From the NCBI GenBank assembly GCA_046563655.1, contig CM102287.1:2604001-2668000 (forward strand): DNA of 64,000 nucleotides. The letters run 5' to 3'. The notes beneath the pieces were generated by a model. That model was not told the DNA's origin and did not search any database. It was given only the letters and a program-made list of their open reading frames with translations. This document shows, in pieces, positions 10,501 to 59,225 of the stretch; within the stretch, counting starts at the first letter, position 1, and each line of letters starts with the position of its first letter. Position numbers and translations under genes: made by a program. This DNA comes from Yuukianura sp. NJ FZ-2021 (Eukaryota).

Positions 10501-10804
10501 AACAAAAGTTTTTCAAAAAGTTTAGAAGATTTTAGAAACAAGTTTTTTAAAAAACTTTTTCCAAAAAGTGTCAATCACAAAATACTAAACAGTTTTATAC
10601 AAAAGTGAAATGTGAAACCCGCAACCTCCAATTTTTCAATTCTCCTAATTTTGTTTTCAAACTCTCCACTCACCTGGAATTGAAATTCAACTTTTTAAAA
10701 ACTTTTTGAAAAGTTTGGTGTGAACAACTTTTTAAAAAAAGTGAGCAAGTTTTAAAAATGTTTTCTTTTGTGTCTTGGCATGGAAGAAAGTAAGTCAAGT
10801 GAAC

Positions 10805-13800
10805 ATGGGTTCCTCTGGGTTTCTCTGTTTGACTTTCCTATTGTTCCTCCCTGCAGTCTTCAGTGGACAGCCACATTGTTCGTGGCTTCCGGCCCCACCA
10901 AGCCCCACCAAACTTTCACTCAAGTGCGAACTCCGGAAACTCACTGTAGATTTTTTGAATTACACCGTCCCACCACCAACTTCCGACCAAATCAAAGCCA
11001 CCTCCGACGTCTCTCTACTTTGCAACGCTCAACTTCTGTTCCAAAGTTTTTTCGATTCCAGCCTTCCGATTTTCCGATTTCAAAATTTGGAGTCCCTTGA
11101 AGTCGAAAATTGCAAAATCCGAAAAATCGAACCACTTCTACTGTCCAAATTTGGATTTCTGAAGAGATTGGTCCTCCACAGTCACAATGGTGATTGGAGT
11201 GGGGCGGTGGGGCTTGAAGTGGCTCAAGGTGGGTTCGATGGCCTGGTGGGGCTCAAGTGGCTCGATTTGGCCCACAATAACATTTGGACTTTACCGGAAA
11301 ACTTGTTTTGTGGACTTGGTTCTCTGGAGAGTCTTATTTTGAGTTGGAACAAATTAACTCAAGTGTCATTGACCAATCAGGAGACAGAAAAGTGCCCATT
11401 GTGTGAATCACTTGTGAATTTGGACTTGGCTGAAAATTCAATTCGGACAATTGGGGAAAACAGTTTTGGAAATTTGAAAAACTTGAAAAAGTTAAAACTT
11501 GAGAGAAACGCGATTGGTCAATTTGAAAACAGAGCGCTGATTGGTTTAAATCAATTGCAACTGCTGAATTTATCCAGTAATAGAATTGCATCACTTCCCC
11601 AAAATCTGTTTCAAAATAATCAACTTTTGCAAGTTTTGGATTTGGGTAAGTTTCAAAAAACTTTCACTTTTTAAAACTTGAAAATTCGATTTTTTTTTTA
11701 AATTGGTGAATTTTTGGGTGAACTACGATTTTCAAATTTTTTTTATAGGAAACAACTTAATAGCGGAATTAAATGGAGCAGAATTCAGCGCCTTGGAAAA
11801 TTTGAGACAACTTAATCTCCAATCAAACAGAATTCGGTTTATTTCAAACTCAACTTTTTTGAATCTCCCGCGTCTCGAAATTTTAGTTCTCGAAAACAAC
11901 CAATTAGAAACCATCGACGCACAACTTTTTATCGCGCAGACGCAGTTGCGACATTTAGATTTGTCGCGGAATCGTCTAACGGCACTCCATTCTTCACTTT
12001 TTCAAAATATATTTCAACTGCGCCAACTTTATTTAGACTACAACCAACTACGTCGAATCGAAGATCCTACTTTTCAGAGCAATTCAAATTTAAAAGACCT
12101 TGGACTTGCCGCCAACTTACTTTCTGAAGTACCCAGGGCCCTTAACTATGCTTCAGGACTGGGGGCCCTTGAAAGCCTTGACCTCGGTGAAAACCGGATT
12201 ACACAAGTATCCAACGACTCTTTTAAATTTCAAGGTCACGTCTACGGCCTTCGCCTCGTTGGAAACCGGCTAACTGAAATTCCGGCCGGGTTTTGCTCAT
12301 CCCTAAAAAAACTGCATGTTTTGAATTTGTCCCAAAACCGAATTCAGAAAATTTCAAGTTCGGCTTTCACAGGATGCCCGGATTTGAAGGCTCTGCGGCT
12401 CGACCGAAACGATTTAGAGGAATTACCGCCCCTTTTAGCTCCGCAACTTCCATCTTTACTCTGGTTGAATGTTTCGGAAAACCGAATTCGGAGAACAAAT
12501 TTTTACGATTTTCCGACAACTACCGAATGGCTGGATTTGAGCCACAACAGACTCGTTTTTCTCGGCGGTGTTTCGACTTCAGTGTCCTTGATGAATAAGG
12601 GCTTCAAGGGCCCTGTCCAGTACAATCTGCGTGTGCTGGACATTTCATTTAACAATCTGACTCATCTCGACTCCAGCACAATTCTACCGAAACTGGAAAC
12701 ACTTCGTGTCAATTTTAATCAATTACGCTCTGTTGCATCCGATACTTTTGGAAGGGCCCTGAGACTTAGAAGGGTTGAACTAATCGGAAATCAATTGAAT
12801 TCGCTCCCTCTGTCATCCCTTAGACTTCCCTTGGATGGACAGGAGGGTGACTTTTCGGCTGATTTGTCAGAAAATCGGAAAACTTCTGCTGATTTCTCAG
12901 AAAATCAGAAAATTTCGGCTGAATCTGAAGGAAATCGGAACTCTTCGGCTGATTTTCCAGGAGATCGGAAAACTTCGGCTGATTTTCCAGGAAATCGGAA
13001 AACTTCGGTTGATTTTCCAGGAAATCGGAAAACTCCGGTTGAAGTCCTCCTAGGCGGGAATCCTTTTGTGTGTGACTGTTCCATGGAGTGGTTGACTTCG
13101 ACCGGACTTGGACCGATGTACCCACGGGTCGTTGACCTGCAGCAGATAAAGTGCAGATCAGTGATTTCTGGAGGAACAAAGGAACTGATAGCCCTTCCGG
13201 ACATGAATCCAACTGACTTCCTCTGTCCCTACTCTGCCCATTGTTTTGCCCTGTGTCAATGCTGTGACTTTGAAGCCTGTGACTGTGCCCAGTTCTGTCC
13301 AGACAACTGCACTTGTTATCACGACGCTTCCTGGACAGCCAACATCGTCCAATGCTCTGGATTAGCACAAACTACTCTCCCTTCCAGAATACCCATGGAC
13401 GCTTCTCAGATTTTACTCGACGGAAACAATTTCAGAGAATTAGGCAGCCACATCTTCATTGGCAAGAGAAACGTTCGTGTTCTCTTTTTAAACAACTCGG
13501 GCCTTGAAACCATTCGCAACAAAACTTTTAACGGGCTGAGGGCCCTTGAAGTCCTCCGACTCGATTCCAACTTTTTGCAAGTTTTAAATGGTCATGAGTT
13601 TGCAGATTTGCCAAATCTAGAACAACTTTATTTGCAAAACAATTTAATCTCTAGTATTGCTCCAAATACTTTTGCAAATTTGAGGGCCCTGCAAATCCTC
13701 AGAATTGACGGAAATCGTCTGACGGAATTTGCAATTTGGGATTTAAGTGCCAATTTCAATTTGAATCAACTCAGAATCTCTCAAAATCCTTGGTCCTGTT

Positions 13801-15470
13801 CATGTCAATTTCTTATTCCGCTGAGAACATGGATTTCGTCCAAGATAGACAAAGAAGATGAGTCTGTCGTGATGGATTACGAATTGGCATCCTGTCAACT
13901 CATCCCCCCTCACCCCGCCCCCACAAGTACCCCCGATGGGGGGTCGTCAAGGGCCCCCTCTGATGGGGGGACTTGGACCCTCCCCCTTAACTCTGCATGT
14001 TCTGGACATGGGCAGGGAGATATTACGACATACTCTGAAAATGGAATTCTGGAAGATGAAAATGAAAAAATGGCAATTCATCACTCGCAACATGAAATTT
14101 CAAAAAGTTTCAAAAAATTTGAAATTTCAAATTTCGCAGCAGGAGAGCGTGGAACGCCTGACGAATCGGCAGAATCGGGGATTTCAGGAAAAGCGTTTTG
14201 GACTTTCACTTTTGCCGTTTCAGCCATTTTGGTCGTAATTTTCATAATTGTGGTGGTCACTAGAATCAAAATTTTTGAAAAACTGAATTTCAGTTTTTTT
14301 GGAATTGTGCAAAATCGGAGTCGTGTCGGATCGGCGGAGAAAGTTGGCGAGGATTCGTCTCAGTTTTTGTCAGATCCAGAAGATACTAAATTATTTGACG
14401 CCTACTTTCTCTATAATGACAGTGACGAGGATCTGGTGACACACAAAATCACTCCGAATCTGGAACTTTCTCGTCTTTTGCTGCATTATCGCGATTTGTG
14501 TCCTGGAGAACTTCCTGGACAATTTCCTGGACAAGGACGGAGTGACTTGGCCTGGAACCCTGACATGACCTTAAGTGCAGCCGAAGTGTCCAGAGCAATT
14601 GTCATTGTCTTGTCCAAATGTTTTCTGGAACAAGAACTTTCAAATTCAGTTTCCCGCTTGGCTGTTCAATTAGTAATTCATCGATTCAGTTCCAAAGTCA
14701 TTTTCATTCTGATTCCACCGTTGGATTCAACATTTACTTTTCCAGCTTTTTTTCCTGGACTAAAATTGTCTAGAACGACCGTTCTGGACTTTCTGGATGC
14801 CGACTTCTGGCCAAAGTTGAGACTTCGGCTGCCCGGAGGCGATGCTGCGCAGGCGCAGAGAATCCAGCTCCAAGTTCCAGTATACTCGCAGTACCATCGC
14901 AACATTACGCCATATCAACTTCAAGTACCCCATGCACCTATCTACCAAGGGACCATCGACTTCAGTCCAAGTACCCCCCACCCTTACTACTCCGCTTCAC
15001 CCGAACCCACTTGGCGGAGACCCTGCCCCACCATTGAACCCACCTACAATACTTCGTTTGCCGAAAATTTCAAGTTCCACCAACAACAGATTCAGCAGAG
15101 CCACCAAGGTGGCACAAATCCAAGGAATTCAAGGAGAAATGTTGTGCCTACAAGTGCCCTACCGGAAAATCAGCCCCACCGCCAGTATCGTCCTATGGTT
15201 CGAGCTGCCCCACCACAATCTAGAAATCTGCCCCACCAAACTGCTTCTCCAAACAGCCCCACCCACTGCTCCACCACTGACAGTGGGAATGTCAATGGAA
15301 GTTGCAGTAGTGATGAACTGGAAAATGAACATGTCTATTCAACATTGGATTCTCCGCTGCAGTCGCCAAACGATTTCGAACTTATCCGAGGATTGGGCAA
15401 CCCCCATTCTGAGCCCCACCAAGACCCACCAAGCCCCGCCCCACCAAAACGCACCATGTATTTTGTATAA
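10805..15470 (+). CDS. Long Toll-family receptor (Tollo/Toll-6/7-like), about 1520 aa; exons 10805-11645 and 11749-15470
   Basis: Signal peptide MGSSGFLCLTFLLFLPAVFS and many LRRs. LRRCT (NPFVCDCSMEWL) is followed by the long-Toll Cys cluster ([39 protein letters not shown]), a second LRR block with NPWSCSC, a TM segment (FWTFTFAVSAILVVIFIIVVV) and a TIR domain (KLFDAYFLY, LHYRDL, FWPKLR). A phase-1 GT..AG intron at 11646-11748 joins the two ORFs in frame (LDLG|NNL). Confidence 0.93.
12855..13040 (+). repeat. Coding minisatellite, about 6 x 30 bp (SADFPGNRKT)
   Basis: The unit TCGGCTGATTTTCCAGGAAATCGGAAAACT is repeated in frame just before the LRRCT of Toll 1. Confidence 0.9.
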
Positions 15471-22400: not shown

Positions 22401-24478
22401 GTTACAACCTAATTCTGCTACGCTGTAAATCTAATACACTCAGATTTTAAAACTCAACCGTGGCGGAGTAAAGACAAATCGCGTGCGAAAGCATTTCAAC
22501 AAAAACCGCCAATTGAGACAAAAGTTTAAAAAAAAAATTGTAACAAAAATTGAGAAATTTGAAATTTTTCTCAATTTCAGAGTTTAAAATCTAAAAATTT
22601 TTGTTCTCTAGGCCATACAAGGTCACTGGCTGGAGAAAATCAATGTCTGTTTTGCAAAAACTTTCTTTTTTGCAATTTTTTGTGTAGTCAAGTGGGAATT
22701 TTCTGCGAGATTTGTTCCTTTTCGCTGAGAGCTGAAGATGGTCTGCACTTTTTCGTGCTTTTCCTCTCTTTTGTGCTTCCAATCAACTTTCTCCTGATTT
22801 CTCCCTCCATAATTCATGTCTTCCACTCCAACTCTTGGCGGAACGAGTGATAAATTGTCTCGAATCTTCTGCTGCGCTCCTGATGAGACAAACTTCATAA
22901 AATCCTCATCAACCCTTGGAAGAAACAAAGTCACGTCGAACAGAAGAAGCGAAGAAAGTGTAATAAGTGACACCATTGCACTCGCTCAACACAAGTTCAC
23001 ACTTCCCCAGTGTCAAAAATAACACGAAACTACAAAACACACGTTCAAGTGACAAAGTTAGGCTAACCTTGGAGTTAGCCTAACCTGCCACTGGATTCAA
23101 TTGATGATCCAGTCTGTACCTTGTCACTTCCTAACAGCCTGCTCCTGCCAATGTCAACATTTAAACCCAACTAACACCGAAAAGCTCAGATTACGGAAAA
23201 ATTTCCAGAAAAAAAACTACTTTGCAATTTCCACCACAGACAATACACGCAAAGTACGATTCACGCCAATGACAATACATGCCAAGAAAAATTCTAAATT
23301 TACTCAAAATCGGCGAAAAAATACAGAAAAGCGGAGAATGATTCAAATGGAGAAAATTTACCTTGGAGGAAAAAAGTGTTTTGCAATTTACGCCAATTCA
23401 AATTCACGCCAATGACAATTCACGCGAATATAAATTCACCTTAAAACAGTGTAAATTTCATTAAATTCATTAGAATCGGCGAAGAAACGAGTAAAAAGGA
23501 AAATACTTAAAATGTATTGAAAAAAAAAAGTGGGTAAAATTTACTTTGGAGGAGACGAGTATTTACGGCCGAGAAAAAGTCGAAAATTTACGTCGTGTTT
23601 TGATTGTCGTCAATTTTGTTCAATTAGTCCAAAAATTTTAGTTTGAGCTCGTTCCAAGTTTAGCTTTTTGAAAGTTGAGCTTTTTCTTGGAAATTGGTGT
23701 GTAATCACTCTATTTTGTGTAGGATTTTTACACCGTAATTTTGAGTTGTTGGTTACTCACCCCTCAATTTCCATTTGGTTTTAAGTACTGTGTGTTTTTT
23801 AGAAAAAGAACAAGGACTTTTTTAATGCAATTTGAGTAGAAAAGGGCTGCTTTGAGGCTTTGTTGACAAGGAGTTAGGGTAAGTTAAGTGCGTTCTAAGC
23901 GTCTCTCGTTATGTTTTCTCAATTTTATTGTGAATGTGTCCTCCTCTGGTCATGATTCTTGTTTTTGTAACCAGGATTTGGACAGGTAACGTCTTCCCAC
24001 AGTTACGTAATTTACGACACAGTCTAGGCGGATCCTGGAACCAGAATGAAAGATTTACTTATTTGTTCAGACTTTTCTGACTTTGGCAAAAAATGGAATT
24101 GACTTGAGAGGAATGTCTCTGGAAATGTTAGGCTAAGCTTTAGGATTAGCAGGTTAGGAAGTAACAGTTACTAAGCTAAGAAAAGTAGAATTTTTAAAAT
24201 TAGACACACTCTGAGTACAGAGAGAGAGAGGCCAAAAGACAAAGTCAATTTAAATACCACACGAAAATAGAACTTTAGACACACTTCTGACAAATTTTTA
24301 AATCAAGAAAATTTCAACTTTCACCAAGACAAAATTTTTGAATGAAAGTTTTTTGTAATAAAAGAAAAGAGAGAAAACTTGATTCGTCGGAAATTCTGGC
24401 AGCAGCGCAGCGCAGAATTGTCGAAGCAAAGTTTTTAAAAGTTTTCAAAAATTATTGCTGTTGGACGGTTTCTGCGGG

Positions 24479-24492
24479 AGGTCAAGAGGTCA
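24479..24492 (+). promoter_or_regulatory. AGGTCA-AG-AGGTCA (DR2-type nuclear-receptor-like element) upstream of cluster gene 1
   Basis: The identical 14-mer also precedes gene 2 (about 26807), gene 3 (about 28024) and gene 4 (about 29311), each about 20-25 bp before a 5'-UTR intron donor. Function is inferred. Confidence 0.45.
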
Positions 24493-24641
24493 CGCTTGCC
24501 CAACTTTGAAGTATGTAATTCCTAAATTTCTAAGCTTCTGTTCATGTTTTTTTATTAACTTTTAATATTTTTGTGTCGTAGATCGATACCGTCGGGTCGT
24601 TTCGGTTCGGAATCGTGTCGGTTCGGATCATTGTTGGAAGA

Positions 24642-25550
24642 ATGAAGCTGCTCGGTGCTTTTCTTGCCGTCATCTGCTTTAGCAGCAGTGTCCAATCAAT
24701 GCAAAAAGAATCTGTGTTCAATAAAGACTCAATTGAAGAAGCGGCTTTTTATGAGGGTGATCTTGGTTGTGGGAAGCGAGAGGTGTACTCTAAACAGAAG
24801 AAGTGGATGAAAGCACAGAAGAGTGACTCTGGCTTTTTCGGGAAATTCAATCAAACAGTTTACTTGAACAAAATTTGGCCGACTGCTGAAGATCTGACCA
24901 AAGAATGTTGTGAATGTTGTGACAAGGCCAAGGACCAAAAGTGGGATAAAGATGTCACCGTCCTGACGAAGTGTAATGAGGAAAGGATCAAGGAGATCGT
25001 GGCAAAGGGAGTCGAGATGGACCGTGCTAAATCTGGAGCGGCGACATTGGATTTCAATGTCGCCGTGACCTTGACCTTGGCGACCGTTCTTGGAGGAAGA
25101 GACAACACTAACGCAAAGGTCACCGCTTTCCTGCTCGTCTTCTGCTGGATCTCAGGCAGCAGTGCCCAGCAGCGAGAGAATTTGTTTCCGGTAGGAAGTG
25201 GAGGTTGGCAGGCCGATGTGAACGCTAGACAAGCCTGCAGCGGCGGCAACCCCAAGTACTTTGAAAATACTAAGCGAGAGGTTGAAGCGTCTCCAGAATT
25301 TCCTGCTGGCTTCCCATCCAAAAACGACTTGATTACCAAAATCCTGCCGACTGCTGAATATCTCGTCAAGGAATGCTGTGATGGTAAGGAATTCAGCAAA
25401 TGTGACGATGCCAAGGTCAAGCAAATTATACAAAGTCGACTAGGAAGTTCAGCCACTTTTTCTACCAACAACGTCGCTTCAACTTCCAAACAAAGTGGAA
25501 TCGCTGGAATCGCTGCTCTTCTTGGAGTAGCAGCAATCAACTTTTTCTGA
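24642..25550 (+). CDS. Cluster gene 1: 302-aa secreted, probably GPI-anchored protein with two homologous Cys domains (A+B)
   Basis: Signal peptide MKLLGAFLAVICFSSSVQS. Domain A is GCGK...KIWPTAEDLTKECC...TKC. A double hydrophobic linker follows. Domain B is ACSGG...KILPTAEYLVKECCDG...SKC. The C-terminus is a Ser/Thr spacer plus the hydrophobic tail GIAGIAALLGVAAINFF*. Likely 5'-UTR intron at about 24511-24581. Confidence 0.8.
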   Translation: MKLLGAFLAVICFSSSVQSMQKESVFNKDSIEEAAFYEGDLGCGKREVYSKQKKWMKAQKSDSGFFGKFNQTVYLNKIWPTAEDLTKECCECCDKAKDQKWDKDVTVLTKCNEERIKEIVAKGVEMDRAKSGAATLDFNVAVTLTLATVLGGRDNTNAKVTAFLLVFCWISGSSAQQRENLFPVGSGGWQADVNARQACSGGNPKYFENTKREVEASPEFPAGFPSKNDLITKILPTAEYLVKECCDGKEFSKCDDAKVKQIIQSRLGSSATFSTNNVASTSKQSGIAGIAALLGVAAINFF

Positions 25551-25734
25551 GATTCCTCAAACACAAAATATTATTTCAATATAATTTACACTAAAAACTG
25601 AAATCTAAATTTTCAAAAATTCTAAGAACTTATGAGAAAAATAAACTTCCATAAATCCATTTGAATTTTGAGCTGAAATTTTCAGGACTTATTTTGGAGT
25701 GATCAGATTTTGTTCAAATTAAGGAGGGATAGGA

Positions 25735-25983
25735 GGGATCCCCTAAAAGGCGGAACGCGGAAAAGGCGGAAAGCCGCGCACTATACGAGGAAAAGGCGGA
25801 TTACCGCGCACTATACGTTTAGGTTAGTTAGGTTAGGTTAGGAAAACCTAACCTAGCCGCGCACTATACGCACTATACGCACTATTTTCCTCGTATAGTG
25901 CGCGGTAATCCGCCTTTTCCTCGTATAGTGCGCGGCTTTCCGCCTTTTCCGCCTTTTCCGCGTTCCGCCTTTTAGGGGATCCC
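25735..25983. mobile_element. 249-bp foldback MITE, Mutator(MULE)-like, with a TTAGG-repeat core
   Basis: TIRs of about 85-90 bp beginning GGGATCCCCTAAAAGGCGGAACGCGG, built of sub-repeats. Perfect 9-bp TSD GGGATAGGA at 25726-25734 and 25984-25992. The centre reads TTAGGTTAGTTAGGTTAGGTTAGG-AAAA-CCTAACCTA. Confidence 0.9.
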
Positions 25984-26965
25984 GGGATAGGAGGCAGCGT
26001 TTGTTTACGATTTGGTGTCAGCTATTGCCGTTAGTAACAAAGCAAAATCACTGCTCAAACTTGCAAAAGTCGGCACTGTTTCCAATGGTTGACAAACCAA
26101 AGTTTTTCGTAGGATAGTAATTCAAACAACCATGGGTTCAACAACAACTTTGTGCCCATGGAGACGGTTGAATTCAGTGCCGATATTTGCAAATTGTTGA
26201 ATAATGTCAGAATTACATCTGTTTTGTCTTATAACTTTTTTATTATAAGACCTAAAAATGCGTTTGAGGTGTCTAAAAATCCGAAAGACCATGGCACATA
26301 AGTTATATTTACCAAATTCCCGAATTTTTGTATCATAACAGGCTTAGAAAAAAATAAACGTTGTATGCAATTTTTAACCTTATTCCAGAACAAAAAGGCA
26401 AATTCTGAGAAATATAACTTATTCTACTGATAATAACGAATTTTTAGAGTCCTCGTACACATTTCTACGTTATTCCTGTGAATACTTATAAGGCCCTAAA
26501 GTTAATTAATTTGAGCCGAAACGAGACTCACCGTTGCCATGTGTGATTCCTTCTTAAACCCGATTTTTTTAGAATTTAGTGTAAAACCAAATTTTTTACG
26601 ATTTATGATTTTTACGAATTTAAGAAAAAGTAACACTCCATGATAACCTGATTTGAACTTTGAAGTGAAATTTTTGTTTAAAGAACAAACAATTTGAGAA
26701 ACTATTCACTCAAAACTTCTGTCGTCAGTTTGAAACACTTGTAGTTTGGATCACGTAAGAAAGTGGTCTTCAAAAGCTGCTCTTGTGCAATTTACGTTTC
26801 TGGAGGAGGTCAAGAGGTCACGCTTGCCCTACTTTGAAGTAATTCCTAAATTTCTAAGCTCCTGTGCATGTTTTTTGTTAACTTTTAATAATTTTGTGTC
26901 GTAGATCGGAAACCGTCGGGTCGTTTCGGTTCGGAATCGTGTCGGTTCCGATCATTGTTGGAAGA

Positions 26966-27513
26966 ATGAAGCTGATCGGTGCTTTTGTTGCCGTTGTCTG
27001 CTTCTGCAGCAGCATCGGCGAAACAATGCAAAGTAAACTGCCGCAGTACCCTAAAGGCGCAATGGAAAACGCGGCTCTTCACGAGGGTGATCTTGGTTGT
27101 GGGAAACCGGAAGTGTACGCAAAAGAGATGAAAGAGATGAAATCACATCCGGATGACCCTTCCTATTTTCCGAGATACAAAACAGCAGACTATTTGGGCA
27201 AAATTTGGCCGACTGCTGAGGATCTGATCAAGGAATGTTGTAACAAGAGCGAAACGTGGAGTCATGATTACACCGTCTTGACGAAGTGTACGACTGAAAG
27301 GAGATCGCGGAGAAGGGGGTCAAGATGAACCGTGCTCCTCCTGGATCTGCATCTGGAGCGGCGACATTGAATGCCGCCTGGGTTGGGACCTTGAATTTGG
27401 CGACCGTTTTTGGGGGAAGAGACAACACTAACGCAAAGGTCACCGCTGTCCTACAAAATGGAATCGCTGTAATCGCTACTCTTCTTGGAGCAGCAGCAAT
27501 CAACTTCTTCTAA
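26966..27513 (+). pseudogene. Cluster gene 2: domain-A-only paralogue with a frameshift (ORF 26966-27328, 120 aa; ancestral tail continues in another frame to 27513)
   Basis: Signal peptide plus HEGDLGCGK...KIWPTAEDLIKECC...VLTKC. Relative to gene 1, 7 nt (ATCAAGG) are missing at about 27300. It may be a pseudogene or a secreted truncated form. Confidence 0.7.
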
Positions 27514-28193
27514 AAATTCTTATACACAAAAATTATTTTTATACACTTTATTACGCTGAAAACCGATTTACAAATGTTCAAATATGTTATGAACTTTCGA
27601 AAAAACAAAACTCAAATTAACAACTCGATTTGAATTTTAAAATTGAAATTTTCAACACTCTGGAGTGATCAGATTTTACTAAAAATTAAAATTTTACTAA
27701 AAGTAAATTATTACTTACGTTATTATAATTATTAGTAAGTAAATTATTTACTAAGTAGTCTCAATTTTTCTAGAATTTATTCTAAAACCAAAATTTTTAC
27801 GATTTACGATTATTACGAATTTACGGAAAAATAAAATAAAAGTAAAACTTCATGACAACCTGAGTTAAACTATGAAGTGAAATTTTTGTTTAAAGAACAA
27901 ACAATTTGAGAAACCATTTTCACTCAAAAATTCTGTCGCCAGTTTCAACCACTTTGCAGTTTGGACACGGAAGAAAGCGGTCTTCTTCAAAAGTTGCTCT
28001 TGTGGAATTTGTGTTTCTCGAGGAGGTCAAGAGGTCACGGACTAATCATCTTCAACTTTGGTAACAAACAACACTGTTAATACAAATGTGTAACTTTCAT
28101 TTATGTTGTTCTCTACTAAAGTGCCGATCTCTGTCTCTAGATCGGTTACGCTCGTTTCTGTTCGTGCTGCGTGTTCCGATCATTGTGGGCAGA

Positions 28194-28667
28194 ATGAAGG
28201 TGATCGTTCCTGTTTTTGGGGGAAGAGACAACACTAACGCAAAGGTGATCGCTGTGCTGCTTCTGCTTTGTGCTGATTTGTGCTGGGGTGCAGACTTGTT
28301 TCCGCCATCAAGTAAAGGTTGGCAGGTCCTAGCCAATGCTAAGGTTTTCTGCGGCAACCCTTCAGGGCTTGACACTCAGAAGAAGTCGTATAACGCGCTC
28401 CCTGACGGTCCAGCGAAGGACGACTGGAATAAGAACATTCTGCCGGCTACGGAATTCGTCATCAAGGAATGCTGTGATGGTAAGAGCTTGAGCAAATGCG
28501 ACGATGCCAAAATCAAGCAACATATCGAAAGTCGTCTCGGAAGTTCAGCCGATTCAACTAAACCCGCAACAGCCGATTCTGCTAAAGGCGTCGCTTCAAC
28601 TCCCAAACAAAATGGAATCGCTGTACTCGCTGCTCTTCTTGCAGCAGCAACAATCAACTTCTTCTAA
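28194..28667 (+). CDS. Cluster gene 3: domain-B-only paralogue, 157 aa, predicted GPI-anchored
   Basis: MKVIVPVFGGRDNTNAK is followed by the signal-like VIAVLLLLCADLCWG, then FCG...ILPATEFVIKECCDGKSLSKC and the hydrophobic tail GIAVLAALLAAATINFF*. Confidence 0.8.
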   Translation: MKVIVPVFGGRDNTNAKVIAVLLLLCADLCWGADLFPPSSKGWQVLANAKVFCGNPSGLDTQKKSYNALPDGPAKDDWNKNILPATEFVIKECCDGKSLSKCDDAKIKQHIESRLGSSADSTKPATADSAKGVASTPKQNGIAVLAALLAAATINFF

Positions 28668-29474
28668 AAATTCTTACACACACACAAAAAATATTTTCAT
28701 ACACTTTAAGGTAAAAACCGAAATCCATATTTTGAAAAATGCTGACTTATAATTATGAAAAAAGAAAATAAAATTCTTTGATAACTCGATTTGAATTTTG
28801 AGATGGAAATTTTCAGAACTTCTACATCTTTTGTAGTCATCAGATTTTGTTTAATTCTTTTTAGTTCAAAAGATACTAATTATAATTTAATTAAATAATT
28901 TTTTTTTAAATTGAAAAGTTATTTCTACTAAAAATTATAACTTTCACTTGGTTTAGGCAGGTTGGCTAATTAATTTAATTAAAATCCCGATTTTCTGAGA
29001 ATTTTCGATAAAATCCAAATTTTTTAATTTTTGTAGAAAGAAATCCCGGAATTATCGCCTTGACAACTGGCTTGACCAAGAAAAATAGAATCCAAATAAA
29101 AATTCAAAATTCACAAAAACATGAGAATTTTGTTACCATGACAACCACTTTGACGGAAAACACTTTTTAAAAAACAAACAACTTCTTCCAAAGGTCATGA
29201 CCTCCGTGGCCGTTGAACTCCAAATCCGTCAGTCTTCATCCAACTTCCGAGGTGAGCGGATCATTCTACAAACGTCTCCTGAAGTTCCAAGCTGTTTTTG
29301 TGTTTCAACGAGGTCAAGAGGTCACCACTTTGTGTCACTCCTTTCCAGTAAGTGCACCGATACTGCCAGCATCTACTTTGTGCTGTTCGGTTCTAAATTT
29401 TCGTTTTTTTGGACTTTTAGGTCGGAAATCTTGAGTAGCGGTTTGAAGTCGTGCTGTTCCTGAGTGAATCGAGA

Positions 29475-29765
29475 ATGAAGTTGGTTGTGTGTGCTGTCGT
29501 TGTGCTGTGCTGCTTGGCCAGCATCCATGGCCAGTCTACTGCTCCGCCTGGTGGTGAAGGGACGGCGGGCCCTACGATGGCCCCGGGCAGTGGCACCACT
29601 GCTGCCGGAGGAGGTGGAATGGACGGCACTCCTGCGCCGGGTGAAGGTGCTGGTTCTGGAAGTGGATCTGGATCGTTCGGGGTCACTTTCAAACCGAATC
29701 TGTTCCTGACTTCCGTCGCTGTGCTGGGAGCAGCAGTCATTGGGGCCAACGTCAAGTCCATCTAA
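29475..29765 (+). CDS. Cluster gene 4: 96-aa Gly/Thr/Pro/Ala-rich small protein, predicted GPI-anchored
   Basis: Signal peptide MKLVVCAVVVLCCLASIHG, a low-complexity core and a C-terminal hydrophobic tail. 5'-UTR intron 29348-29420 (GTAAGT..TTTTAG). Same GAATGAAG start context as genes 1-3. Confidence 0.8.
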   Translation: MKLVVCAVVVLCCLASIHGQSTAPPGGEGTAGPTMAPGSGTTAAGGGGMDGTPAPGEGAGSGSGSGSFGVTFKPNLFLTSVAVLGAAVIGANVKSI

Positions 29766-32664
29766 ATTCAACACCTCAACAATCAAAACACAAACTTCAA
29801 TTCAAAAAGAACATAAGTCAACCATAAGTTGACCATAAGTAATCAAAAATACTGCCATACTGCGAAAGTACAAGTACAATTACAAAAAGTTACGAAAATA
29901 TTAACTATATACAAAAATAAAAATACAAAATTACATTTTTGAAAATATTTCAAAAGTTGGAGTCAGCATTTCTTGTTCTTTTAAAATAACTTCAAAAGTT
30001 GTAGTTAGCATTTCTTGTTCTTCTAAAAATATTTAGATTTTAAAAGCCTTAGATTTTAGAATTTAAATTTTGAAAGAAAACAAAAAATTTTTAAACTAAA
30101 TTGTAGAATTTCTAAAATTATTGTAGAAAATTAGTGAAAAATTGGAGAATTTAGATTTTAAAGACTTTTGTGGTGGTTGTTTGTACTGGATTGTTACATT
30201 TTCACTGGCAGCATTTTTGGGAACTGGAAACTACTGACAGTATTTTTGGCATCTGGAGTACTGGCAGTACTTTTTGCTTTGTTTGGACAGTTGAGTTGTC
30301 ACTTTTGATGGAGGTGTGGGTTCGAATCCACTTTGGAGAGGACCACCAAACTCGAAATAGTTGACATTTGAAATTGCACTTTTATTGTAAAAGTTACAAC
30401 TTTTAACTACTAAAATGTGGGAGGTCAAAAGTTGCATGGGTGGCAATTGATTGTTTCTTCAAAAATTGTCAATTTGGGCAGTTATGACCTTTGACCTCGG
30501 CGGTTTTTAGTCTAGAAACCATTGTTGGAAAATATTTTAGTGTGAAACACCGCTCCTCTTCTGCTGTAATAAAATGATGAATGTCTTCAGATTGATTTAT
30601 GAGTGCAGTTTGAGTGGAAATGACTCAATCTCAGTTTATTCGGAAGTTTATTTCACTTTTGGTCATAAATCTGTCAAAGGTCAAGGGTCAAATAAAACCA
30701 AAGTTCCAAGTAAACTAAAAACATAAAACAATTTAGACATAGACTAACAAGTTGTTTTGGCTCGGAAAGGGGCGTGGCCAAGTGACATCCAGTGACAAAT
30801 GACCTCATCAGTGTCAACTTTACGCCAGTCCTGCCCAAATTCATAGCTTAACTTTTTAATTTTATGAAATTGTGATTTTAAATCTGGTTAAATTTTGAAA
30901 CTGTGTGACAAATGATCCTAAATCGGTGTCTTTTGGATCTAAACATTTCAATTGTTTTGTGTAGATGGAATGTGATAAGGTTTAGAATGTCCCTGTGTCT
31001 CCAGTTTCACAAATTGCACAAGCATCACAGCATGAGACACCTACTGCTAAGGGACAGGGGCCCTGGAGGGCCAAGACCACTGCCACAATGTCACTTGGCC
31101 AAGGGGACCCTTAAGGGCTCTCCAACTGACTCCAGTGGAGGAGCACTGTGTCTCTCCAGGGTCTCTCAAATATTGTTATGTGTCTGCATTCCTCTGGACC
31201 AAGCAGGATCCACTACCATCTTCCACCGCAGTAGTCCAAAACATAATCACACTCAACTTACATCCAACCACTTTTCAAAAACATCAAACTCAAATTTAGA
31301 AATTTTAATTTCCACTAAAAAGTTACATTTTTTGATAAACTTTTACGCCATTTCAAGAAGAATTTCCAGAAATTGTGAAATTTTACGTTGTGTGATTTAA
31401 AAAAAAGTTTAGCTGGCATTTCACTCTGACATAAAAAATTAGTGAAAGTTTTTTCTTTTTTTCTTTTTAGTTTTCTAATGACAAATGAGTCCAAAAATTT
31501 GAAATTATGGAATTTTGCTCACGATTTGACTTGATTAAATTAAATTCAACTTTTTTGAAATTGGCTTAATTTTTAACTTTTCAAAACTTGATCTGTCAAC
31601 TCCTCGAACTGAAACTTTAAGTCAATCGACAATTGATTTCCTTCTGTCTTTTGCTCTTTTGAGTTATTAGTTTCCGTCAAAGTTACTAATGATTGTCATT
31701 ATTTCCTGTAGTTTTTACTAAGTTATTCAACCTAACAATGTTAGTGTATTCTGCCTAACTTAAAGATGTTATTGCCTAACCTAATGTAGTTAAAGGAGGG
31801 TGCGGTGACCTTGTGGTCCAGGTCATTTGTATCTTTCAAATTGATTCTCCTGTGATAAATACTTCAAAGACAGCGACGACAGGATTTTCAACAAAGCTGA
31901 AACTCCTTCTTTTCAAAATTCTACAAACTCCTCACGTCCTCTTCAAAATTTCGGCGGCGCTTCACGATCAGCTCAAAAGTTTTTAAGGTGTCGAATTTCA
32001 CGTGACCTTTGACCCAAATTTTCAAAAAAAGTTAGAAAATATAAAAATTTTATATTTCTAAAAATTATTTAGAAAATTGTGGAGAAATTGTAGAATTACT
32101 GGAATGAATGGCGTTAAGTTGTTGCATAAAAAGTGACGAAATTTTTATTGAGTAAGTTCAAGTTATTGTGCATTTTCCGTCATGAATCGGCATAAAATAG
32201 TTGTGAATGTGCAGATAAGTACCCATGGGTACTTAGGTTGTCCTGTGAAAACAAAAGGAGAAATTACAGGGCCTGTCCCCTGTCCACGTCAGAAAGTGAT
32301 TGTCAAAGTGTCATAATCATGAGATGATGACACTCTCCGTTGGAGTTAAAGCTAAGGACCCCCTCCGGGGGGACTTCAAAAATGTAAGAATATTTTAAGT
32401 ACTGGCGGTGACTTGACAAAAGTTGGACTTTACCAAAAACGGCCTTCAAGGGACCGTCCAAAATTCAATGAAGCTCAAAACGGCTGCAGCGGCTCGTGAA
32501 AAAAAAATCATTTGTAGACAGCACGATGACATTTTCAAAAAAAAAAAACTTCAAATACTTGTATTCGTGAAGGGCCTCTTGCGAGGGCCCTTTAAGGGCT
32601 CCTTTTTTAACAAGCTTCGCAAGTACTGAACAGAATCTAAAAAATTCGGGCTTGATTCTGATTG

Positions 32665-32867: not shown

Positions 32868-35156
32868 ATGCTGTCAGTCATTGATGAAAACAAGAAGCGT
32901 AAGCGACGTCGACGATGTCCTGTTCCGAAGTCCACGTTTACGACATTCATGGACGAAGGGTTCATGCACTTCAGAGCTGGTCGCTACCGCAAGGCTCTCT
33001 TCTGCTACGATCGGGTAAGGGTCATTGACCTCCAGGTCAAAGGTCAAATCAAGGTCAAAGGTCAAGGTCAAATTTTTGAATCCACTGCTTTTCAGGCCCT
33101 GGAGCTGAATGCCACCCACCGTGGGGCCTTGGTGGCTCGAAGTCAATGTTATTTGAAGCTGGGCGATGCCAGTTCAGCGCTTCGCGACGCTGAAACGTCG
33201 TTTGACCCCAAGAATCCCTACATCCTTGGTCTTTACCAATACGCTGAAGCGCTGTTCAGCCTCGGCAGCTTCGAAAAGGCGCTGATCGCTTTTAGCTACG
33301 GTGTGAGAACACGGCGAGACATGGATGGATTTAGAATCGGAGTTCAGAAGTCCATTGAAGCCATTACGCAGGCCATTGGAGACAAAGCGGCCACGCAAAT
33401 TGAAGATTTCTTTGACATCATTTCTCTCGTGGACGAGCTTGAAGCACTCAAAAACGGTAAGGTCAAAGGCCAAAATTGAAAAAAAGCAAAAACTAGAGAT
33501 TAAAATTCAAAATTTTTTGGAAATAGCAAAACAGGAGCATTGTTGCATTCGGCCGAATCCGGAAGAGGAGGAGATGAATGCGAAGCGTCTGAAGTTGAAA
33601 CCGCCGTCGAAGGCGCGAAGTGGTTGGGTGGCACGAGAAGTGTTGGGTCAAATGTTTTCAGACAAAGACTATTTGACGAAGTTCATGCAAAGAGCGGACA
33701 TTCAAAGTGAACATGGATCTGGTCAAGCTTTACGCAGAAACGCAACGGAAGCTCTCGGATTTCTGAAAATCCGGGAAGAATTTTGGCGTGCCCAGAATCC
33801 AATGTATTCTCGCAAATACGGGCTCAACTTTAACAACAACGTAAGTTCAACATAAAAAAATCACACAAGAATTTCAACCCCCAAAAAATTTCCGAAAACT
33901 TTTTTCAAAATGTTCTAAAATTTTCAATTTGAAATTTTCAGATGGTCCTCCAATATGAAGAGCAGGAACGTCTGCGTCAAGAGCAAAGTCGACGAATCAA
34001 AATGGACGCTGCAGAGGGCGCCATCGTCAAAAATTTATCGCTCATTCAACATGGTAAAAATCCACGAATTTTAAAATTGTCAAAGAAAATTTTAAATTCT
34101 TCAAAAATTTCTTGAAATCACAAAATTTTCTCTTAAATTTTTTCTAGCTCTGGCGATTGGTCGGCCACATGACTGTAAGCACTATGTAAAATTGAAATTA
34201 ATCGATTACTAATTACTAATCGATTAATTTCATGATTTTAAGGTACTTTGGAGTGCGAGAGAACGTTGCGTCAAATGAAGAAAATCACGAAAACTGTTTT
34301 GCCGCGTCGCACTGAATTTGTGTGTCAAATTTACCACTACAAAGGCCTAGCTCTCATTGAACAAAAAAAATATGACGAGGCTGTAAACGCTTTTCAAGTT
34401 GAATTTGACCTTGCTACGGCAGAGTAAGAATTTTCCAAAATTTCAAAACTTAAAATCTGACTTTTAAATTTTGACCTTTGACCTCAGGAAAATGACTCCA
34501 GAGAGGTCACGTGCCTTGGACTGCTTGGCGAAATGCTATGCCTACAAGAAGTGTTGGGCTGAAGCTGCTGACATTTGGGAATCTCGTCTTTCTCTTTTAA
34601 AAGATCATGTCGAAAGAGCTTACGTGTTTCACGAAATTGGTCGGTGCTATTTTGCCATGGCTCGGACTGACATGTCAAAGTAAGTCACGAGGTCAAAGGT
34701 CACGAGGTCACTTTTTGAATCTCGTTTTTGTTTTTAGGCATTTTGCAATTCAGAGTTTGGAAGAAGCCGAGAAGATTAGCGACGATATCTGGAGTGCAAA
34801 TGCCCACATTTTATTGGCTCAAATCGATAGTAAGAAATTAAATTCTGAGACCTCAAAATTTGAAATTTGGAATTCATTTAGTGACTAAAATTTTGTTTTT
34901 TGAAATTTCAGTTAAGCTGATGCACTTGGAATCAGCGGCAAGTCACTTTGAAAAAGCAGAGAAGCTTCTTCGTGTTACGCAGGACAAGACGATGTTGTCG
35001 CTGATCGCTGAATCTCTGCAGTGCTTGAAAGTTTGGATTGAAAAACGCGAAAAACTGGAACCGGAAGCCACAGAGACGAATTTGTCCGACGAGGAAGCTG
35101 AAACACACTTCGTACAAGCTGAAAAACCGAAAGCTCCAAAACCACCGTCAGCTTAA
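32868..35156 (+). CDS. TTC25: Tetratricopeptide repeat protein 25 / outer dynein arm docking complex subunit 4; exons 32868-33014, 33096-33456, 33527-33840, 33942-34053, 34148-34174, 34243-34423, 34488-34679, 34738-34828, 34912-35156
   Basis: N-terminal TPRs (STF..EG..ALVARSQCYLKLGD..ALRDAE..AEALFSLGSFEKAL..FRIGVQKSIEAI), the central motifs LGQMFSDKDYL and FWRAQNPMYSR, and C-terminal TPRs match the TTC25 pattern. All GT-AG introns keep the frame. Confidence 0.88.
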
Positions 35157-41950: not shown

Positions 41951-44900
41951 TTATACAAAGTACATGTGACCTGATGACGGACTTTCTGGAAATTGGATTG
42001 ACGCACTTCCGTCATGACTCTGACGACGCATGGCGACATTGGCGACATTGTCGCCGGTGACATTCAGAGGTCCTGGCGACTGCAGCGGAGTGTCCAGCGT
42101 CGAGTAAAGATGCTCCTCAGACGCCAAACTGCCCAAAGTATTTGTACTGTCAGACAGATTTTGTTCTGTCAGAGGCGGATAAGTACAGGAGATCGTTGAA
42201 ACTGAATTCTGATGTTCATGGGAATGGTCAATCCCGTGGGGTTGAACCCCGATCTGAAGAACCCCATGAACCCCGGAGCTTTGAACCCCGTGGGGATGAC
42301 CTTGACCCCCGCAGAACATGATTGGCTGATGGACAGAAGTTGACAACATTCCAGCGTCATTGAATCCCTGACTCACTCGTCGATTCGCCGGAACAGCGTG
42401 ATTTTGGTGGTGACAGTGTTGATGGTGGGACCAGATCGGCGGCTTCTGACCGCCAAGTCCATGGTGGGGCCAAGGCGGCTGCAGATTTTGGTGGGGCCTT
42501 TGGTGGCTCAAGATTTCGTGGACGGAGGGTAACGTTTGCGGATGGTGCTGGACTTGAGCCACTTCACTTTTCGATGGAAACGGCAGGAGTCTGCGCAGTT
42601 TTGACTTGAACTGCGGATCTGTCCATTCCAGAAGATTCGGAGTTCCGGAAGTCAGACTTTTCTGGCGATTCAGACTTTTAGTGGCCCCAGACCGATGCAT
42701 CGGCGAATCAGCCGATGCTGCATTCAGTTCCGGGAAGATTGTCACCAGAGACGACAGATTTTGTACGGAAAGAGGCGGGAGTAAGATGAAGATGAGTTTC
42801 TTTTGATGTCGACTTAGCGTTAATTGAAGTGCTCTTCTGAAATCTCCGTTATTTGTCCACTCTCGCTCCAGAAAAGTTTTGGACAAAAGAATCACAATGC
42901 GCTTACTCGCTTCTCCAGCACTCTCCATCATCTCTGGATTCCAAGCATTCTCCAGTCCCACACACAAGTCTCGATGAAAACAGAGGCGAAGGCGATTCTT
43001 GTCTTCCTCCAGTTCTGGAATTAGCTTTTCTCTTAACAGCTCCTCATCTTCCCAATTGTACACAAAATAAGCGTCAAACAGCTTCTCACTCTCAGATTCT
43101 TCCTTGTTTCTGATTGGTCGATTCATAGATCCAGCATTACTTGCCTGGAATCCAGACTTTTTTCGGAGGAATCCGAAAATTCCGACTTTTCGTCTCCCCT
43201 GACACAAAAGAGAAAGTTCTTTCCGGAAAATCAAAATTAGTCCAATAATCAGCAGAATTCCGACGATCGAGCACAAAACTATTGCCAGCATCACGGAAGT
43301 ATCGAAGTCCATTGTGCCAGCATCTCCAGCATTCCTGTCCGCCAGCACATTTTGAGCAGCATTCCTGCCCGGCAGCACATTTTGATCAAAATTTTGTGTC
43401 CCAACTGCCTGTTTTTCTGGAATTTGTGCCAGAGCGTTGTTCACACCATCATCTACTATTGGGATTCTGTCCAACTCATTATTACAAATTGAGTCGAGTG
43501 TCTGCTGTATCTGAGGAAAAGTGTGGCCCGAGAGTGTCTTCGGCTGATTCTGAGGAATAGTATGACCCTCTACAAATATTTGGCACTTGGCCAAATTGAA
43601 ATCTGCCACAATTTTAGTAGGTTTTGATTCTATCCAAGAGCGAAATGGTGTCACGAAATCACATTCACAAGACCAAGGGTTCCCTGAAATCCAGAGACCC
43701 TTCAAGTACCCGTTTCCACTCAATTCCCAAACATTAAAATCAACCAATCGATTTCCATCAATTCTTAAGTCCTCCAGAAATTTCAAATCTGCAAAAGTCT
43801 CCGAAGCTATGGATTCCAGTCGATTGTTCTGGAGAAACAATGTTTTAAGGGCCCCCAGCCCCTTGAACTCCCAGCCATCCAGGGATGTTAGTAAGTTGTT
43901 TTGGAGGTGGAGGACTTCAAGGGCTCCGAGTCCATTGAACGTCTTGTTCCTGATTGTTTCTAGTCGAGTGGCGTTGAGATACAGGCTTCTGAGGTTTCTC
44001 TTGCCAATGAAGACGTGACTGCCTAATTCTCTGATTCCGTTGCCATCTAATCGGATTTCGGTGGCTTCCATTGGAATTCTGGGAGGGAGGACTTGGTAGT
44101 CCAAATTGGAGCACTTTATAATGTTGACAGACCAAACGTTGTCATGGAAACAGGAACAGTTCAAGGGACAGGAAAAGTGACAGTCACAAAAGTCAAAGTC
44201 ACAGCAGTTGCACAAAGGGAGACACTGGCTGGTGTAGGGACACAAAAACTGGGAGGGACTTAGGTCCTGGATGGGAACTAGGGCACTGGAAGCATTTGTA
44301 CTGGCAGTATTTGTGCTGGCAGTATTTTGTGTTGTACATTTGACTGAGTCCATGTCCATGAGGTGCGGATGTTGACGAAGAATGGCCAGTTGATATTGAT
44401 TGAGACGCGGCAGCCATTCCATTGAACAGTCACAGCGAAACGGATTTCCAGCGAGGAAAAGCTCTGGAAGCGATCGAGACGCTGGAACGCTCGGGAAAGT
44501 GAAAGCTGACAGCGAAATCACTTCCAGTTCATTTCCGATCTGACACAAAAAAAAAATATTGTCTTTACGTCTTCAATTTTTCAGAATTTCTTCAAAAAAA
44601 CAACAAAAAACAAAAAAAAATTCATCATTTTTGAGCTAATTTATAAAAATCTTACCAATTCAACGCGCCTGAGGTGCGTAGAGCGACTAAAAGTTCCAGG
44701 CGCAACAGATTTTATCAAATTGTGGTTGATTCTGAGCGTTTCCAGCGATTCTGGCACAGTGTCAATGTCAATTTTAGTTAGTCTGTTGTGCGACGCGTCT
44801 AAGACGCGTAATTGACTTTTCACGGCGCGCATTTGTCCGCGCCCTTCATTTCCCAGGAACTCCAACAAATTGTAACTCAAATCCAGCCATTCTACTGTTT

Positions 44901-46704: not shown

Positions 46705-47034
46705 TTTTAGTTGATTTGATCCAGAACCAGTTTTACATTTCGTCTATTGTTCTTTCCACATCCTCTGATTCAAAATTGCTTTTTTCTTTTCAAAATTTTA
46801 TTGAAAGTGGAGTCTGTAAAACATAAGAAAGCCATTAGTCACTGCATAAGTTAACAAGAGAGCAATAAACTTCACAACATAAGACTTAAAAAGACAAGTG
46901 TCACTGTCACCTCTGAAACATGTCAAGGAACCTAAAGCCCCAGTGACACATCACAACTGACGTGACCCATGACAACTACCACACGCATCTTCACTCAAAT
47001 GCTAAAGAAATTCAAGAATTTCATCATTCTGACA

Positions 47035-57532: not shown

Positions 57533-59225
57533 ACAAAGTGAAGACTTTTATATACAAGTGACTTAATCAATTGAATTAATTAGTTTGTGGATTAATTGAA
57601 TTCAATGATACTCACATGACTCGGGGATTCTTGTGTTAAAGTTCTCTTTTGTATTATTTATGCTAAAAAGTGGATAAGAGTTAAAGTAAATTATGGAATC
57701 TATGAAATAAATCAAAAGTTAATTATAAGAATTCGCAAAAGTTAATTAGTTAATTACAGAGTTAATTAGCAAAATTAATGTGTCGAAACTTTAGATATAA
57801 AACAGATTTTGAATGGAAAAAGGACGCTTTTTATGAATGGATTCGAAAGAGTAAATTTTTTACGCGACGCTTCCTCCCTTAAAAACGTAAACGAAATTTA
57901 TGAATGAATTTGGAAGAGTCCATTTTTACTCTACCCTTCTTTCCCTCAAGAATCGTAGTAAAATTTTTATCAATGAACGTGGAAGAGTCCAGTTCAATTT
58001 ACGCGAGACTTCCTCTCCTCAACGTCCATTTTTTTATGAATGAAACTTAAAATTAAAATGAAATTTAATTTTGAAAATTTCTGATTACTGGTACTTCAAA
58101 ATTTTAATAATTCCAGTTTGAATTTTAGTAATTACGATTAATGTGTTAATGATCTTTGGTAAAATGGGTTTAAAACTCACTCTTATTCTTAGTTTACACA
58201 ATTAATTAGTTTAATTAATTAAAAGCAGAAGTCCTTACACAATGAAGCACATTATCAAGAACTCGATGTTCAAAATTTTAAGTTTCTTCAACATTTGAAT
58301 TTCAAATTTTAAACTCTAAGAAAAAGGACAAATGTCTCCACGGTTTCTATTTACAATCTCATAAAATATCAATCATTCCCAATCTCAATTCCTCAGTTTT
58401 TGTTTGTTTTGTAATTAACTAATTAGTTAATTAATTAAAATGACAAATTGGATGGTGATTAAAAGTGAATTAAAGTTAAAGACTAGTTTATGTGTAGCTC
58501 AACCCTAACTGTGTCCTTAGAAAGTGAAGAAGTTAGTTAAAATGGAGTTAATTAGTAATTAACATTGTAATTTCAATAAGTTTAAGTGAATTTGTTGTAA
58601 AGGAAAGCTCGATTTTGAAGTTAACTTTAATTACAATTAAGTTTTATAAGGTTAAGATTATTCTAAATTGTTAAACTTGAATGTTTTAGGATATGTTTGA
58701 AAACATGCTTTGATAAAAGTTGGTGAAAATCTCAATCAAATAAATTAGCTTCATAAAACAAGTGAAACGTGAATTAAATTATTTAGTTGTACTAATTATA
58801 ATTAAACTAGAATTACTTATAATTAACACAAAAACTAAATGCGGAATCGAAAAACCAAAACTTTTGATAAATATCACAGAAACGTTTGGGATAAAAACCA
58901 AAAACAAATTGTAACTTTACACATTTTCTACTTAAAACTATTTAAATTGAGGCTTAATTGATATTTAATGATTGATACTAATTATTTTAATTGTGCCAAA
59001 GTTTAATTTTGTAATTAACGTAGGGATTATGTTTTGGTATTGGTTGCAAAAACTCAGGCGATGGATAGGATACGTTTCAAACTCAAATGATATTCTCGTT
59101 CCGAGGCTCACGACGTGTGACCTGTGATATGTTCTTTCTTGACCTTTGACCTTGACTTCAAGAATAGGTCAATGACCTTGACCTCAGGAGAAAGTCAATG
59201 ACCTTGACCTTTGTCTCTTCCTTGT

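Follow-up and report, generated by a model that had tools for sequence, protein, structure and literature searches.

A tandem gene cluster for probable secreted proteins in Yuukianura sp., with paralogous units, complementary deletions, and a probable pseudogene

In this report, we focus on a 64,000-nucleotide (nt) stretch of the genome of Yuukianura sp. NJ FZ-2021 (GenBank assembly GCA_046563655.1, contig CM102287.1, positions 2,604,001 to 2,668,000 of the forward strand; hereafter the window, numbered from its first letter), which contains a tandem cluster of four genes that is probably lineage-restricted and that, to judge from the predicted products, probably encodes small secreted proteins tethered to the membrane. 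Genes 1 to 3 form a triplet in which gene 1 carries two units, A and B; B is missing from gene 2 and A from gene 3. The best reading, in which we have moderate confidence, is that a cluster specific to this lineage and probably coding for surface proteins has evolved by birth and death, and the locus is regarded here as ordinary turnover of tandemly duplicated genes in an orphan family. An earlier note on this DNA had interpreted the triplet as gene fission or subfunctionalization by complementary deletions; the deletions themselves are real, whereas the idea of a working fission is not supported, since gene 2 is frameshifted as assembled and A and B are paralogous.

Sequence reading, the list of open reading frames (ORFs), repeat finding, and a three-gene alignment all confirm the triplet as three copies on the same strand, with ATG codons at 24642, 26966, and 28194. 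An upstream motif, the end of the 5′-untranslated region (5′-UTR), the linker GGRDNTNAKV, a hydrophobic tail, and the 3′ flanks are common to all three genes, a resemblance far beyond chance. The 5′-UTR ends in GATCATTGTTGGAAGAATGAAG in genes 1 and 2 and in GATCATTGTGGGCAGAATGAAG in gene 3, the last ~22 nt being common, and the common 5′-UTR proposed in the earlier note is thus recovered at its end. Its description of a tail ending in INFF at the stop codon, followed by common 3′ flanks, is likewise borne out by repeat families D1, D5, D12, and D14, the 3′ flank common to genes 1–3 extending over ~190 nt. The additional match that it reported between 26560–26830 and 27760–28040 was found at 79–91% identity (repeat families D7, D10, D11, and D13).

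Gene 1 (24642..25550, + strand) is an open frame of 302 amino acids (aa), whose first half comprises signal peptide 1 (SP1, aa 1–19), the A domain (20–135), the A tail (136–150), and the linker (151–160), and whose second half comprises signal peptide 2 (SP2, 161–176), the B domain (177–283), and the B tail (284–302). Its hydropathy profile contains four hydrophobic segments, at residues 1–18, 136–152, 158–175, and 284–302. Although A and B had been treated as unrelated domains, tblastn, alignments, and signal-peptide DNA show that they are homologous to each other. The B half of gene 1 matches the A region of gene 2 at 33% identity (tblastn, E 4e-9), A and B units in general are 28–33% identical, and protein alignments leave C, G, I.P..E, KECC, D, and KC invariant in all four units. 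The unit alignments also match up the signal peptides and the tails; at the DNA level, SP2 aligns to SP1 with a score reached by 0 of 2000 shuffles, and the homology of the A tail to the B tail is marginal (95 of 2000). A and B are thus paralogous units, each consisting of a predicted signal peptide, a ~100-aa helical cysteine domain, and a hydrophobic tail. Gene 1 therefore joins two whole pre-protein units in frame and head to tail, and its linker separates the decayed A tail from the signal peptide of B. An in-frame intron that would excise the tail, linker, and SP2 of gene 1 (GTGACC..CCCAG, 114 nt) was rejected, its donor being unlike the four GTA-type donors of the 5′-UTRs described below.

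The two deletion junctions can be read directly in the alignment of the three genes. Gene 3 (28194..28667, + strand; 157 aa) encodes MKVIVPVF, the linker, SP2, the B domain, and the tail. As the earlier note had recognized, it passes from its start straight to the linker region: the ATG and ~20 nt of SP1 are followed by the last 8 nt ahead of the linker, so that alignment columns 300–743 (SP1, A, and the A tail) are missing. The junction falls within 28207–28218, at the short imperfect direct repeats GCTTTTG and CGTTTTTG as read from the sequence, and the former internal segment SP2 is the sole signal peptide of gene 3. Introns of 45 or 93 nt after ATGAAG in gene 3 were considered and rejected as too short or out of frame.

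Gene 2 passes from the linker and 14 nt of SP2 directly into the tail, with the junction between 27452 and 27453, at the short imperfect direct repeats CT.TCC and CT.CC, again as read from the sequence; it lacks alignment columns 791–1168 (SP2 and B). The jump from linker to tail that the earlier note had seen (NAKVTAVL to QNGIAVIA) therefore stands, with B missing, but those residues lie in a frame other than that of the ATG, from which they are separated by a frameshift. The ORF that starts at the ATG (26966..27328, + strand) has 120 aa, comprising the signal peptide, the A domain up to its last cysteine, and nine out-of-frame codons, and ends at a stop at 27326–27328, ahead of the linker and tail. 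The cause is a 7-nt deletion relative to gene 1 (alignment columns 629–635; + strand, between 27302 and 27303), located between two AAGGA repeats, and the complete series of gene 2 indels relative to gene 1 is +3, +3, −15, −7, and +12. The remainder of the gene continues in another frame (27298..27513, + strand) through the end of A, the A tail, the linker, the 14 nt of SP2, the tail, and the stop. The predicted truncated product keeps the conserved cysteines of the A domain and loses the last helix and the anchor. Additionally, AATAAA occurs at the homologous place in genes 1 and 3 and is absent from gene 2. Because the 7-nt deletion breaks the frame, gene 2 is probably a pseudogene. Fission by duplication and degeneration would leave both derived copies intact; here gene 3 is open and gene 2 is frameshifted as assembled.

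The four genes have a common predicted layout, in which the motif GAGGTCAAGAGGTCAC is followed, after 18–23 nt, by a GTA-type donor, a 66–80-nt stretch ending in TAG that may represent an intron, and ~55–60 nt of 5′-UTR ending in AGAATGAAG. In gene 1, the motif GGAGGTCAAGAGGTCACG (24477..24494, + strand) lies 16 nt before the GT at 24511, where the putative 5′-UTR intron begins (24511..24581, + strand; 71 nt, GTATGT..TAG; 94% identical to that of gene 2). The corresponding motifs, all on the + strand, are at 26805..26822 in gene 2 (putative intron 26839–26904), at 28022..28039 in gene 3 (putative intron 28061–28140), and at 29309..29326 in gene 4 (putative intron 29348–29420), the last with a score reached by 0 of 1000 shuffles. 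The 13-nt motif core GGTCAAGAGGTCA occurs exactly only upstream of genes 1–4; at up to two mismatches, there are 11 matches in the window against 1.5 expected. Direct and inverted repeats of the GGTCA/TGACC type were also observed in introns and spacers (34680–34712, 30480–30500, 30676–30692, and 59147–59210), and since such related repeats are common across the window, the 13-nt core is not specific on its own; the cluster's upstream motif is of a sequence type found widely in this genome.

The linker GGRDNTNAKV, reported by the earlier note for genes 1–3, is encoded in all three, and its 26-nt core is exact in each (25095..25120, + strand, in gene 1; 27415–27440 in gene 2). No other stretch shared exactly by the three genes is as long as this core, the second longest being the 18-nt upstream motif; elsewhere in the window it has no match at up to three mismatches, and 100 shuffles gave an expectation of 0. 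No exact match to the 26-mer was found in metagenome contigs. Derivation of the linker from a former 5′-UTR was rejected, the alignment not exceeding shuffles (1835 of 2000 reached its score), and RNA folding around the linker gave an unconvincing −6.4 kcal/mol with one compensated pair.

Divergence among the three genes is mosaic. Between genes 1 and 2, identity is 45% far upstream, 93% in exon 1, 94% in the intron, 98% in the 5′-UTR, 94% at the start of SP1, 74% in mature A, 67% in the A tail, 95% in the linker, 92% in the tail, and 70–78% in the 3′-untranslated region (3′-UTR). The corresponding values for genes 1 and 3 are 47% far upstream, 67% in exon 1, 36% in the intron, 55% in the 5′-UTR, 81% at the start of SP1, 89% in the linker, 69% in mature B, 88% in the tail, and 71–86% in the 3′-UTR; those for genes 2 and 3 are 78%, 71%, 38%, 53%, and 86% over the first five of these regions, 95% in the linker, 93% in the tail, and 75–76% in the 3′-UTR. 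The observation that the mature domains are more diverged than their flanks thus applies to genes 1 and 2, in which exon 1, the intron, and the 5′-UTR are 93–98% identical against 74% for mature A, but not to genes 1 and 3, in which the intron (36%) and the 5′-UTR (55%) are less alike than mature B (69%). Across their 5′ non-coding block, genes 1 and 2 differ at 8 of 150 positions, against 16 of ~51 synonymous sites in A (Fisher p = 6e-6), which makes this flank far younger than those synonymous sites; it looks like a young gene-conversion tract. For this reason, the conservation of the 5′ flank is not evidence of unusually fast evolution of the mature domains.

The rates of nonsynonymous (dN) and synonymous (dS) change do not support rapid adaptive evolution of the mature domains, for which the earlier note had suggested fast change as in recognition, immunity, or reproductive proteins. 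For A1/A2, dS is 0.41 and dN 0.37, giving a dN/dS of 0.91 (bootstrap 95% confidence interval 0.46–1.91); for B1/B3, dS is 0.59 and dN 0.37, giving 0.62 (0.35–1.10). Neither pair has a dN/dS above 1 in its mature domain, with the qualification that these are Nei-Gojobori pairwise averages, which would not reveal selection at single sites. The value for A1/A2 is compatible with loss of constraint. Given the identities of mature A and mature B and their dS values, the copies are considered to be old rather than duplicates produced by assembly. Furthermore, genes 2 and 3 have far-upstream DNA in common that gene 1 does not (78% against 45–47%), as expected if they are sister copies.

Gene 4 (29475..29765, + strand) would encode a 96-aa protein with a signal peptide, a low-complexity body rich in G, A, P, and T, and a hydrophobic tail. 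Its upstream motif region and its 5′-UTR with signal-peptide DNA are like those of the triplet (0 of 1000 shuffles reached the score in each case), and its putative intron has the same position; the similarity of its tail is marginal (49–104 of 1000 shuffles). Gene 4 is therefore taken to be paralogous in its promoter, 5′-UTR, and signal peptide only. Three remnants, all on the + strand, lie upstream of the later genes: a 3′-UTR-like segment ahead of gene 2 (26622..26674; 0 of 500 shuffles reach the score), another ahead of gene 3 (27821..27886; 9 of 500), and a segment resembling the tail end and stop region ahead of gene 4 (29173..29192; 2 of 500, with a repeat match). They suggest either that copies were lost here or that the duplication unit had its borders at these places. 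Together with gene 4, they point to a wider, decaying birth-and-death array.

From these data, we infer an order of events which, taken as a whole (fusion, tandem duplication, reciprocal deletions, decay of gene 2, and 5′ conversion), is probably correct. The founding unit would have consisted of an N-terminal signal peptide, a ~100-aa helical domain with a C..CC..C pattern, and a C-terminal hydrophobic stretch. A single-unit gene of this kind would have been duplicated and the two units fused in frame to yield the AB form seen in gene 1, in which the tail of A and the signal peptide of B would have survived as an internal hydrophobic pair around the 10-aa linker. The AB gene would next have been duplicated in tandem, and short-homology deletions would have taken most of SP2 and B from gene 2, and most of SP1, A, and the A tail from gene 3. 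Gene 3 would have stayed an intact single-unit gene that uses the former internal signal peptide; gene 2 would then have undergone the 7-nt slippage deletion that broke its frame, and the similarity of genes 1 and 2 at their 5′ ends would stem from a recent gene conversion. Deletion from an AB template is favored because gene 2 keeps 14 nt of SP2 past the linker and because gene 3 keeps the first codons of SP1 together with the last codons of the A tail.

Several observations weigh against this account. The frameshift of gene 2 may be an assembly error or a compensated frameshift, as a run of five G residues (27315–27319) lies 12 nt downstream of the 7-nt deletion and one extra G would bring the net indel to −6. 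The linker core is exact in three genes whose adjoining coding DNA is 67–74% identical, which plain decay of gene 2 would not predict. The identities of the tail and the 3′-UTR do not consistently pair genes 2 and 3 as sisters; in the second part of the 3′-UTR, genes 1 and 3 are 86% identical, genes 1 and 2 78%, and genes 2 and 3 75%. In addition, the DNA sequence is what predicts that the genes are transcribed, where they start, and how their introns are arranged, and the glycosylphosphatidylinositol (GPI) anchoring discussed below is suggested by inspection and hydropathy.

Some of the same observations would suit an alternative in which reciprocal deletions in two AB copies split the work of the parent, so that the A-only gene 2 and the B-only gene 3 are both functional. 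The two deletions complement each other, and neither has removed the linker; gene 2 is still 92–95% identical to the other genes in its linker core and tail, the conserved blocks GDLGCGK, KIWPTAEDL.KECC, and TVLTKC are intact in A2, and the single extra G mentioned above would restore the frame. We nevertheless consider this division of labor unlikely: as assembled, gene 2 stops at 27328, before the last helix, the linker, and the tail, its poly(A) signal is gone at the homologous place, and the dN/dS of A1/A2 speaks against a functional gene. The AB parent form is, moreover, still there and intact in gene 1, and the paralogy of A and B leaves no evident pair of distinct sub-functions to divide, since the loss of one unit simply returns a gene to the single-unit form.

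The order of events could also be reversed, with A-only and B-only genes coming first and gene 1 arising as a chimera by recombination between linker copies. Genes 2 and 3 stand in the order A then B with a linker in each, and one crossover would give exactly the layout of gene 1; however, the leftover of SP2 in gene 2 and those of SP1 and the A tail in gene 3 are expected from deletions in AB genes and are otherwise unexplained, and the difference of 26–31% between gene 1 and genes 2 and 3 in A and B means that it is not their recent chimera, so that we give this order little credence. It is, finally, highly improbable that the triplet is an assembly artifact, that is, a mis-joined or falsely duplicated segment. 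Such a view could draw on the fact that the only sequencing runs that contain at least one third of the sampled words of the stretch (0.37 to 0.66) come from one sample, but false duplications would give near-identical copies, whereas those found here differ by 5–30%, with many private indels, distinct flanks, and a private insert that resembles a miniature inverted-repeat transposable element (MITE). This palindromic insert (25735..25983) lies in the spacer between genes 1 and 2 and is bounded by a 9-bp target-site duplication, GGGATAGGA. The element measures 249 bp and has perfect terminal inverted repeats of 38 nt and TTAGG-like repeats at its center; with its flanks, it spans 25726–25992.

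Database searches with the predicted proteins are consistent with an orphan family. The sole Pfam match, to DUF1389 in one of the four proteins, had an E of 0.029 and scored 14.1 bits, below the cut-off of 29.6. A word-indexed protein search with gene 1 gave 3342 candidates of near lengths, none at E ≤ 0.01, and 103 candidates of shorter lengths without a match, and an exhaustive phmmer search with gene 3 against 1.84 billion representatives gave none at E ≤ 0.001. Among metagenome loci searched via the unit alignment, none of the 125 pattern matches was confirmed. In the ESM Atlas, the top score of 0.80 was at chance level and the B domain alone gave no usable match; a profile search of the PDB returned two chance-level matches. 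AlphaFold2 (AF2) modeling of gene 3, using an alignment of four units only, predicted a four-helix core at residues 34–122 with a predicted local distance difference test score (pLDDT) of ~82 (mean 62.3, predicted template modeling score 0.52); the model of gene 1, made without an alignment, was uninformative (pLDDT 39.9). Foldseek found no match at E ≤ 0.001, and VIA-align, with a best Z of 5.3 over 48,161 chains, found nothing beyond the generic helical background. The family is accordingly without detectable relatives in the protein, metagenome, and fold collections searched.

Hydropathy and alignment place a hydrophobic segment at the N-terminus of genes 1, 2, and 4 and at residues 13–36 of gene 3. 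The last 16–19 residues are hydrophobic and terminal, with S, G, and A residues upstream (hydropathy and inspection), and this C-terminal stretch looks like a GPI-attachment signal. The combination of a signal peptide with a terminal hydrophobic stretch preceded by small residues suggests GPI anchoring, by which the extracellular helical domains would be tethered to the membrane. In gene 1, a hairpin would be made up of the A tail, the positively charged linker (RDNTNAK), and SP2, its linker portion facing the cytosol.

The same features allow a further reading of gene 1 as a natural cellular polyprotein that is cut via its internal signals into two separately anchored surface proteins, an idea that we find doubtful. 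Once SP1 had been cleaved off, the A tail would serve as a GPI or stop-transfer signal inside the chain, and SP2 would be an internal cleavable signal peptide, with the two products equimolar. As would be expected of a secretory polyprotein, the internal SP2 is homologous to SP1 and is the only signal peptide that gene 3 has. Genes 2 and 3 would then each fix in the genome one of the two products of this processing, gene 2 encoding A with a tail-linker-tail hairpin, and gene 3 encoding the linker as the n-region of SP2, followed by B and its anchor. Such processing would account for the survival of the linker in both deletions and for the conservation of its 26-nt core, which exceeds that of all other DNA in the cluster.

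The cluster is flanked by two large Toll-type receptor genes, in which Pfam identifies LRR and TIR domains; they are located at 10745–15470 (+) and 41951–46743 (−) and face each other over the ~26 kb that contain it. The best database match of the latter is a springtail protein (42% identity, 63% of the query); the next, among the 120 matches listed of 200 proteins at E ≤ 1e-20, are insect Toll-6, Toll-7, Tollo, and 18-wheeler proteins. The host is accordingly taken to be an arthropod of a sparsely sampled lineage. The ectodomain ORF of the (+) gene contains an in-frame tandem repeat at 12854–13042 (30 nt × 6.3 copies, 84% matches) encoding units such as ..SADFPGNRKT... Within the long open frame of the (−) gene, ARAGORN called a tRNA-Leu(CAA) at 42229–42318 (−), possibly a false call or an embedded tRNA-like stretch; Rfam gave no match over the whole window.

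Several known systems provide points of comparison for the birth-and-death reading and its alternatives. In the model of subfunctionalization by complementary degeneration, duplicate copies lose complementary parts. Closest to the present case is gene fission by duplication and complementary degeneration, which the monkey-king genes of Drosophila, reportedly described by Wang, Yu, and Long in 2004, are said to have undergone (PMC3395120). As in that fission, a multi-part parent was here duplicated and the copies lost complementary parts; unlike it, the duplication was in tandem rather than by retroposition, the parts are paralogous units rather than distinct domains, the parent form is still present, and, as assembled, one derived copy of the two carries a frameshift. 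In tandem clusters that encode lineage-specific secreted proteins and evolve by birth and death, conserved signal and UTR parts are combined with divergent mature parts. The cluster resembles them in its conserved islands of promoter, 5′-UTR, signal peptide, and tail, in its mature parts, which are diverged or, in gene 4, replaced, and in its probable pseudogenes and remnants, but differs in that there is no excess of amino-acid over silent change and in that the 5′ flank of genes 1 and 2 is apparently a young conversion tract rather than an old constrained segment.

For the possible processing of gene 1, one parallel is provided by viral glycoprotein polyproteins, which are cut at internal signal peptides. 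Like them, gene 1 has one frame with two ectodomains and hydrophobic segments in between, the second of which is signal-peptide-like; unlike them, it is cellular, no sequence or fold similarity to viral proteins was found, and any cleavage is hypothetical. Another is the engineered DAF-hGH chimera, whose internal GPI signal is reported to remain able to direct the attachment of an anchor (J Cell Biol 1991, PMC2288913). Gene 1 likewise has, midway through a secretory protein, a hydrophobic GPI-signal-like stretch, followed by one that resembles a signal peptide; the chimera is, however, a laboratory construct in mammalian cells.

If the proposed history of fusion, duplication, and deletion is true, a full cycle from single-unit gene to two-unit fusion and on to trimmed single-unit genes would be preserved within 5 kb, and its readable junctions make the locus a clean teaching case for the gain and loss of domains via tandem duplication, although it does not touch any question that has long been open. 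The anchor signal and the signal peptide predicted inside gene 1 would offer a natural test of the use of internal signals in a cellular protein, and the family is a candidate for a surface protein restricted to one lineage, in an arthropod group that has been little sampled.

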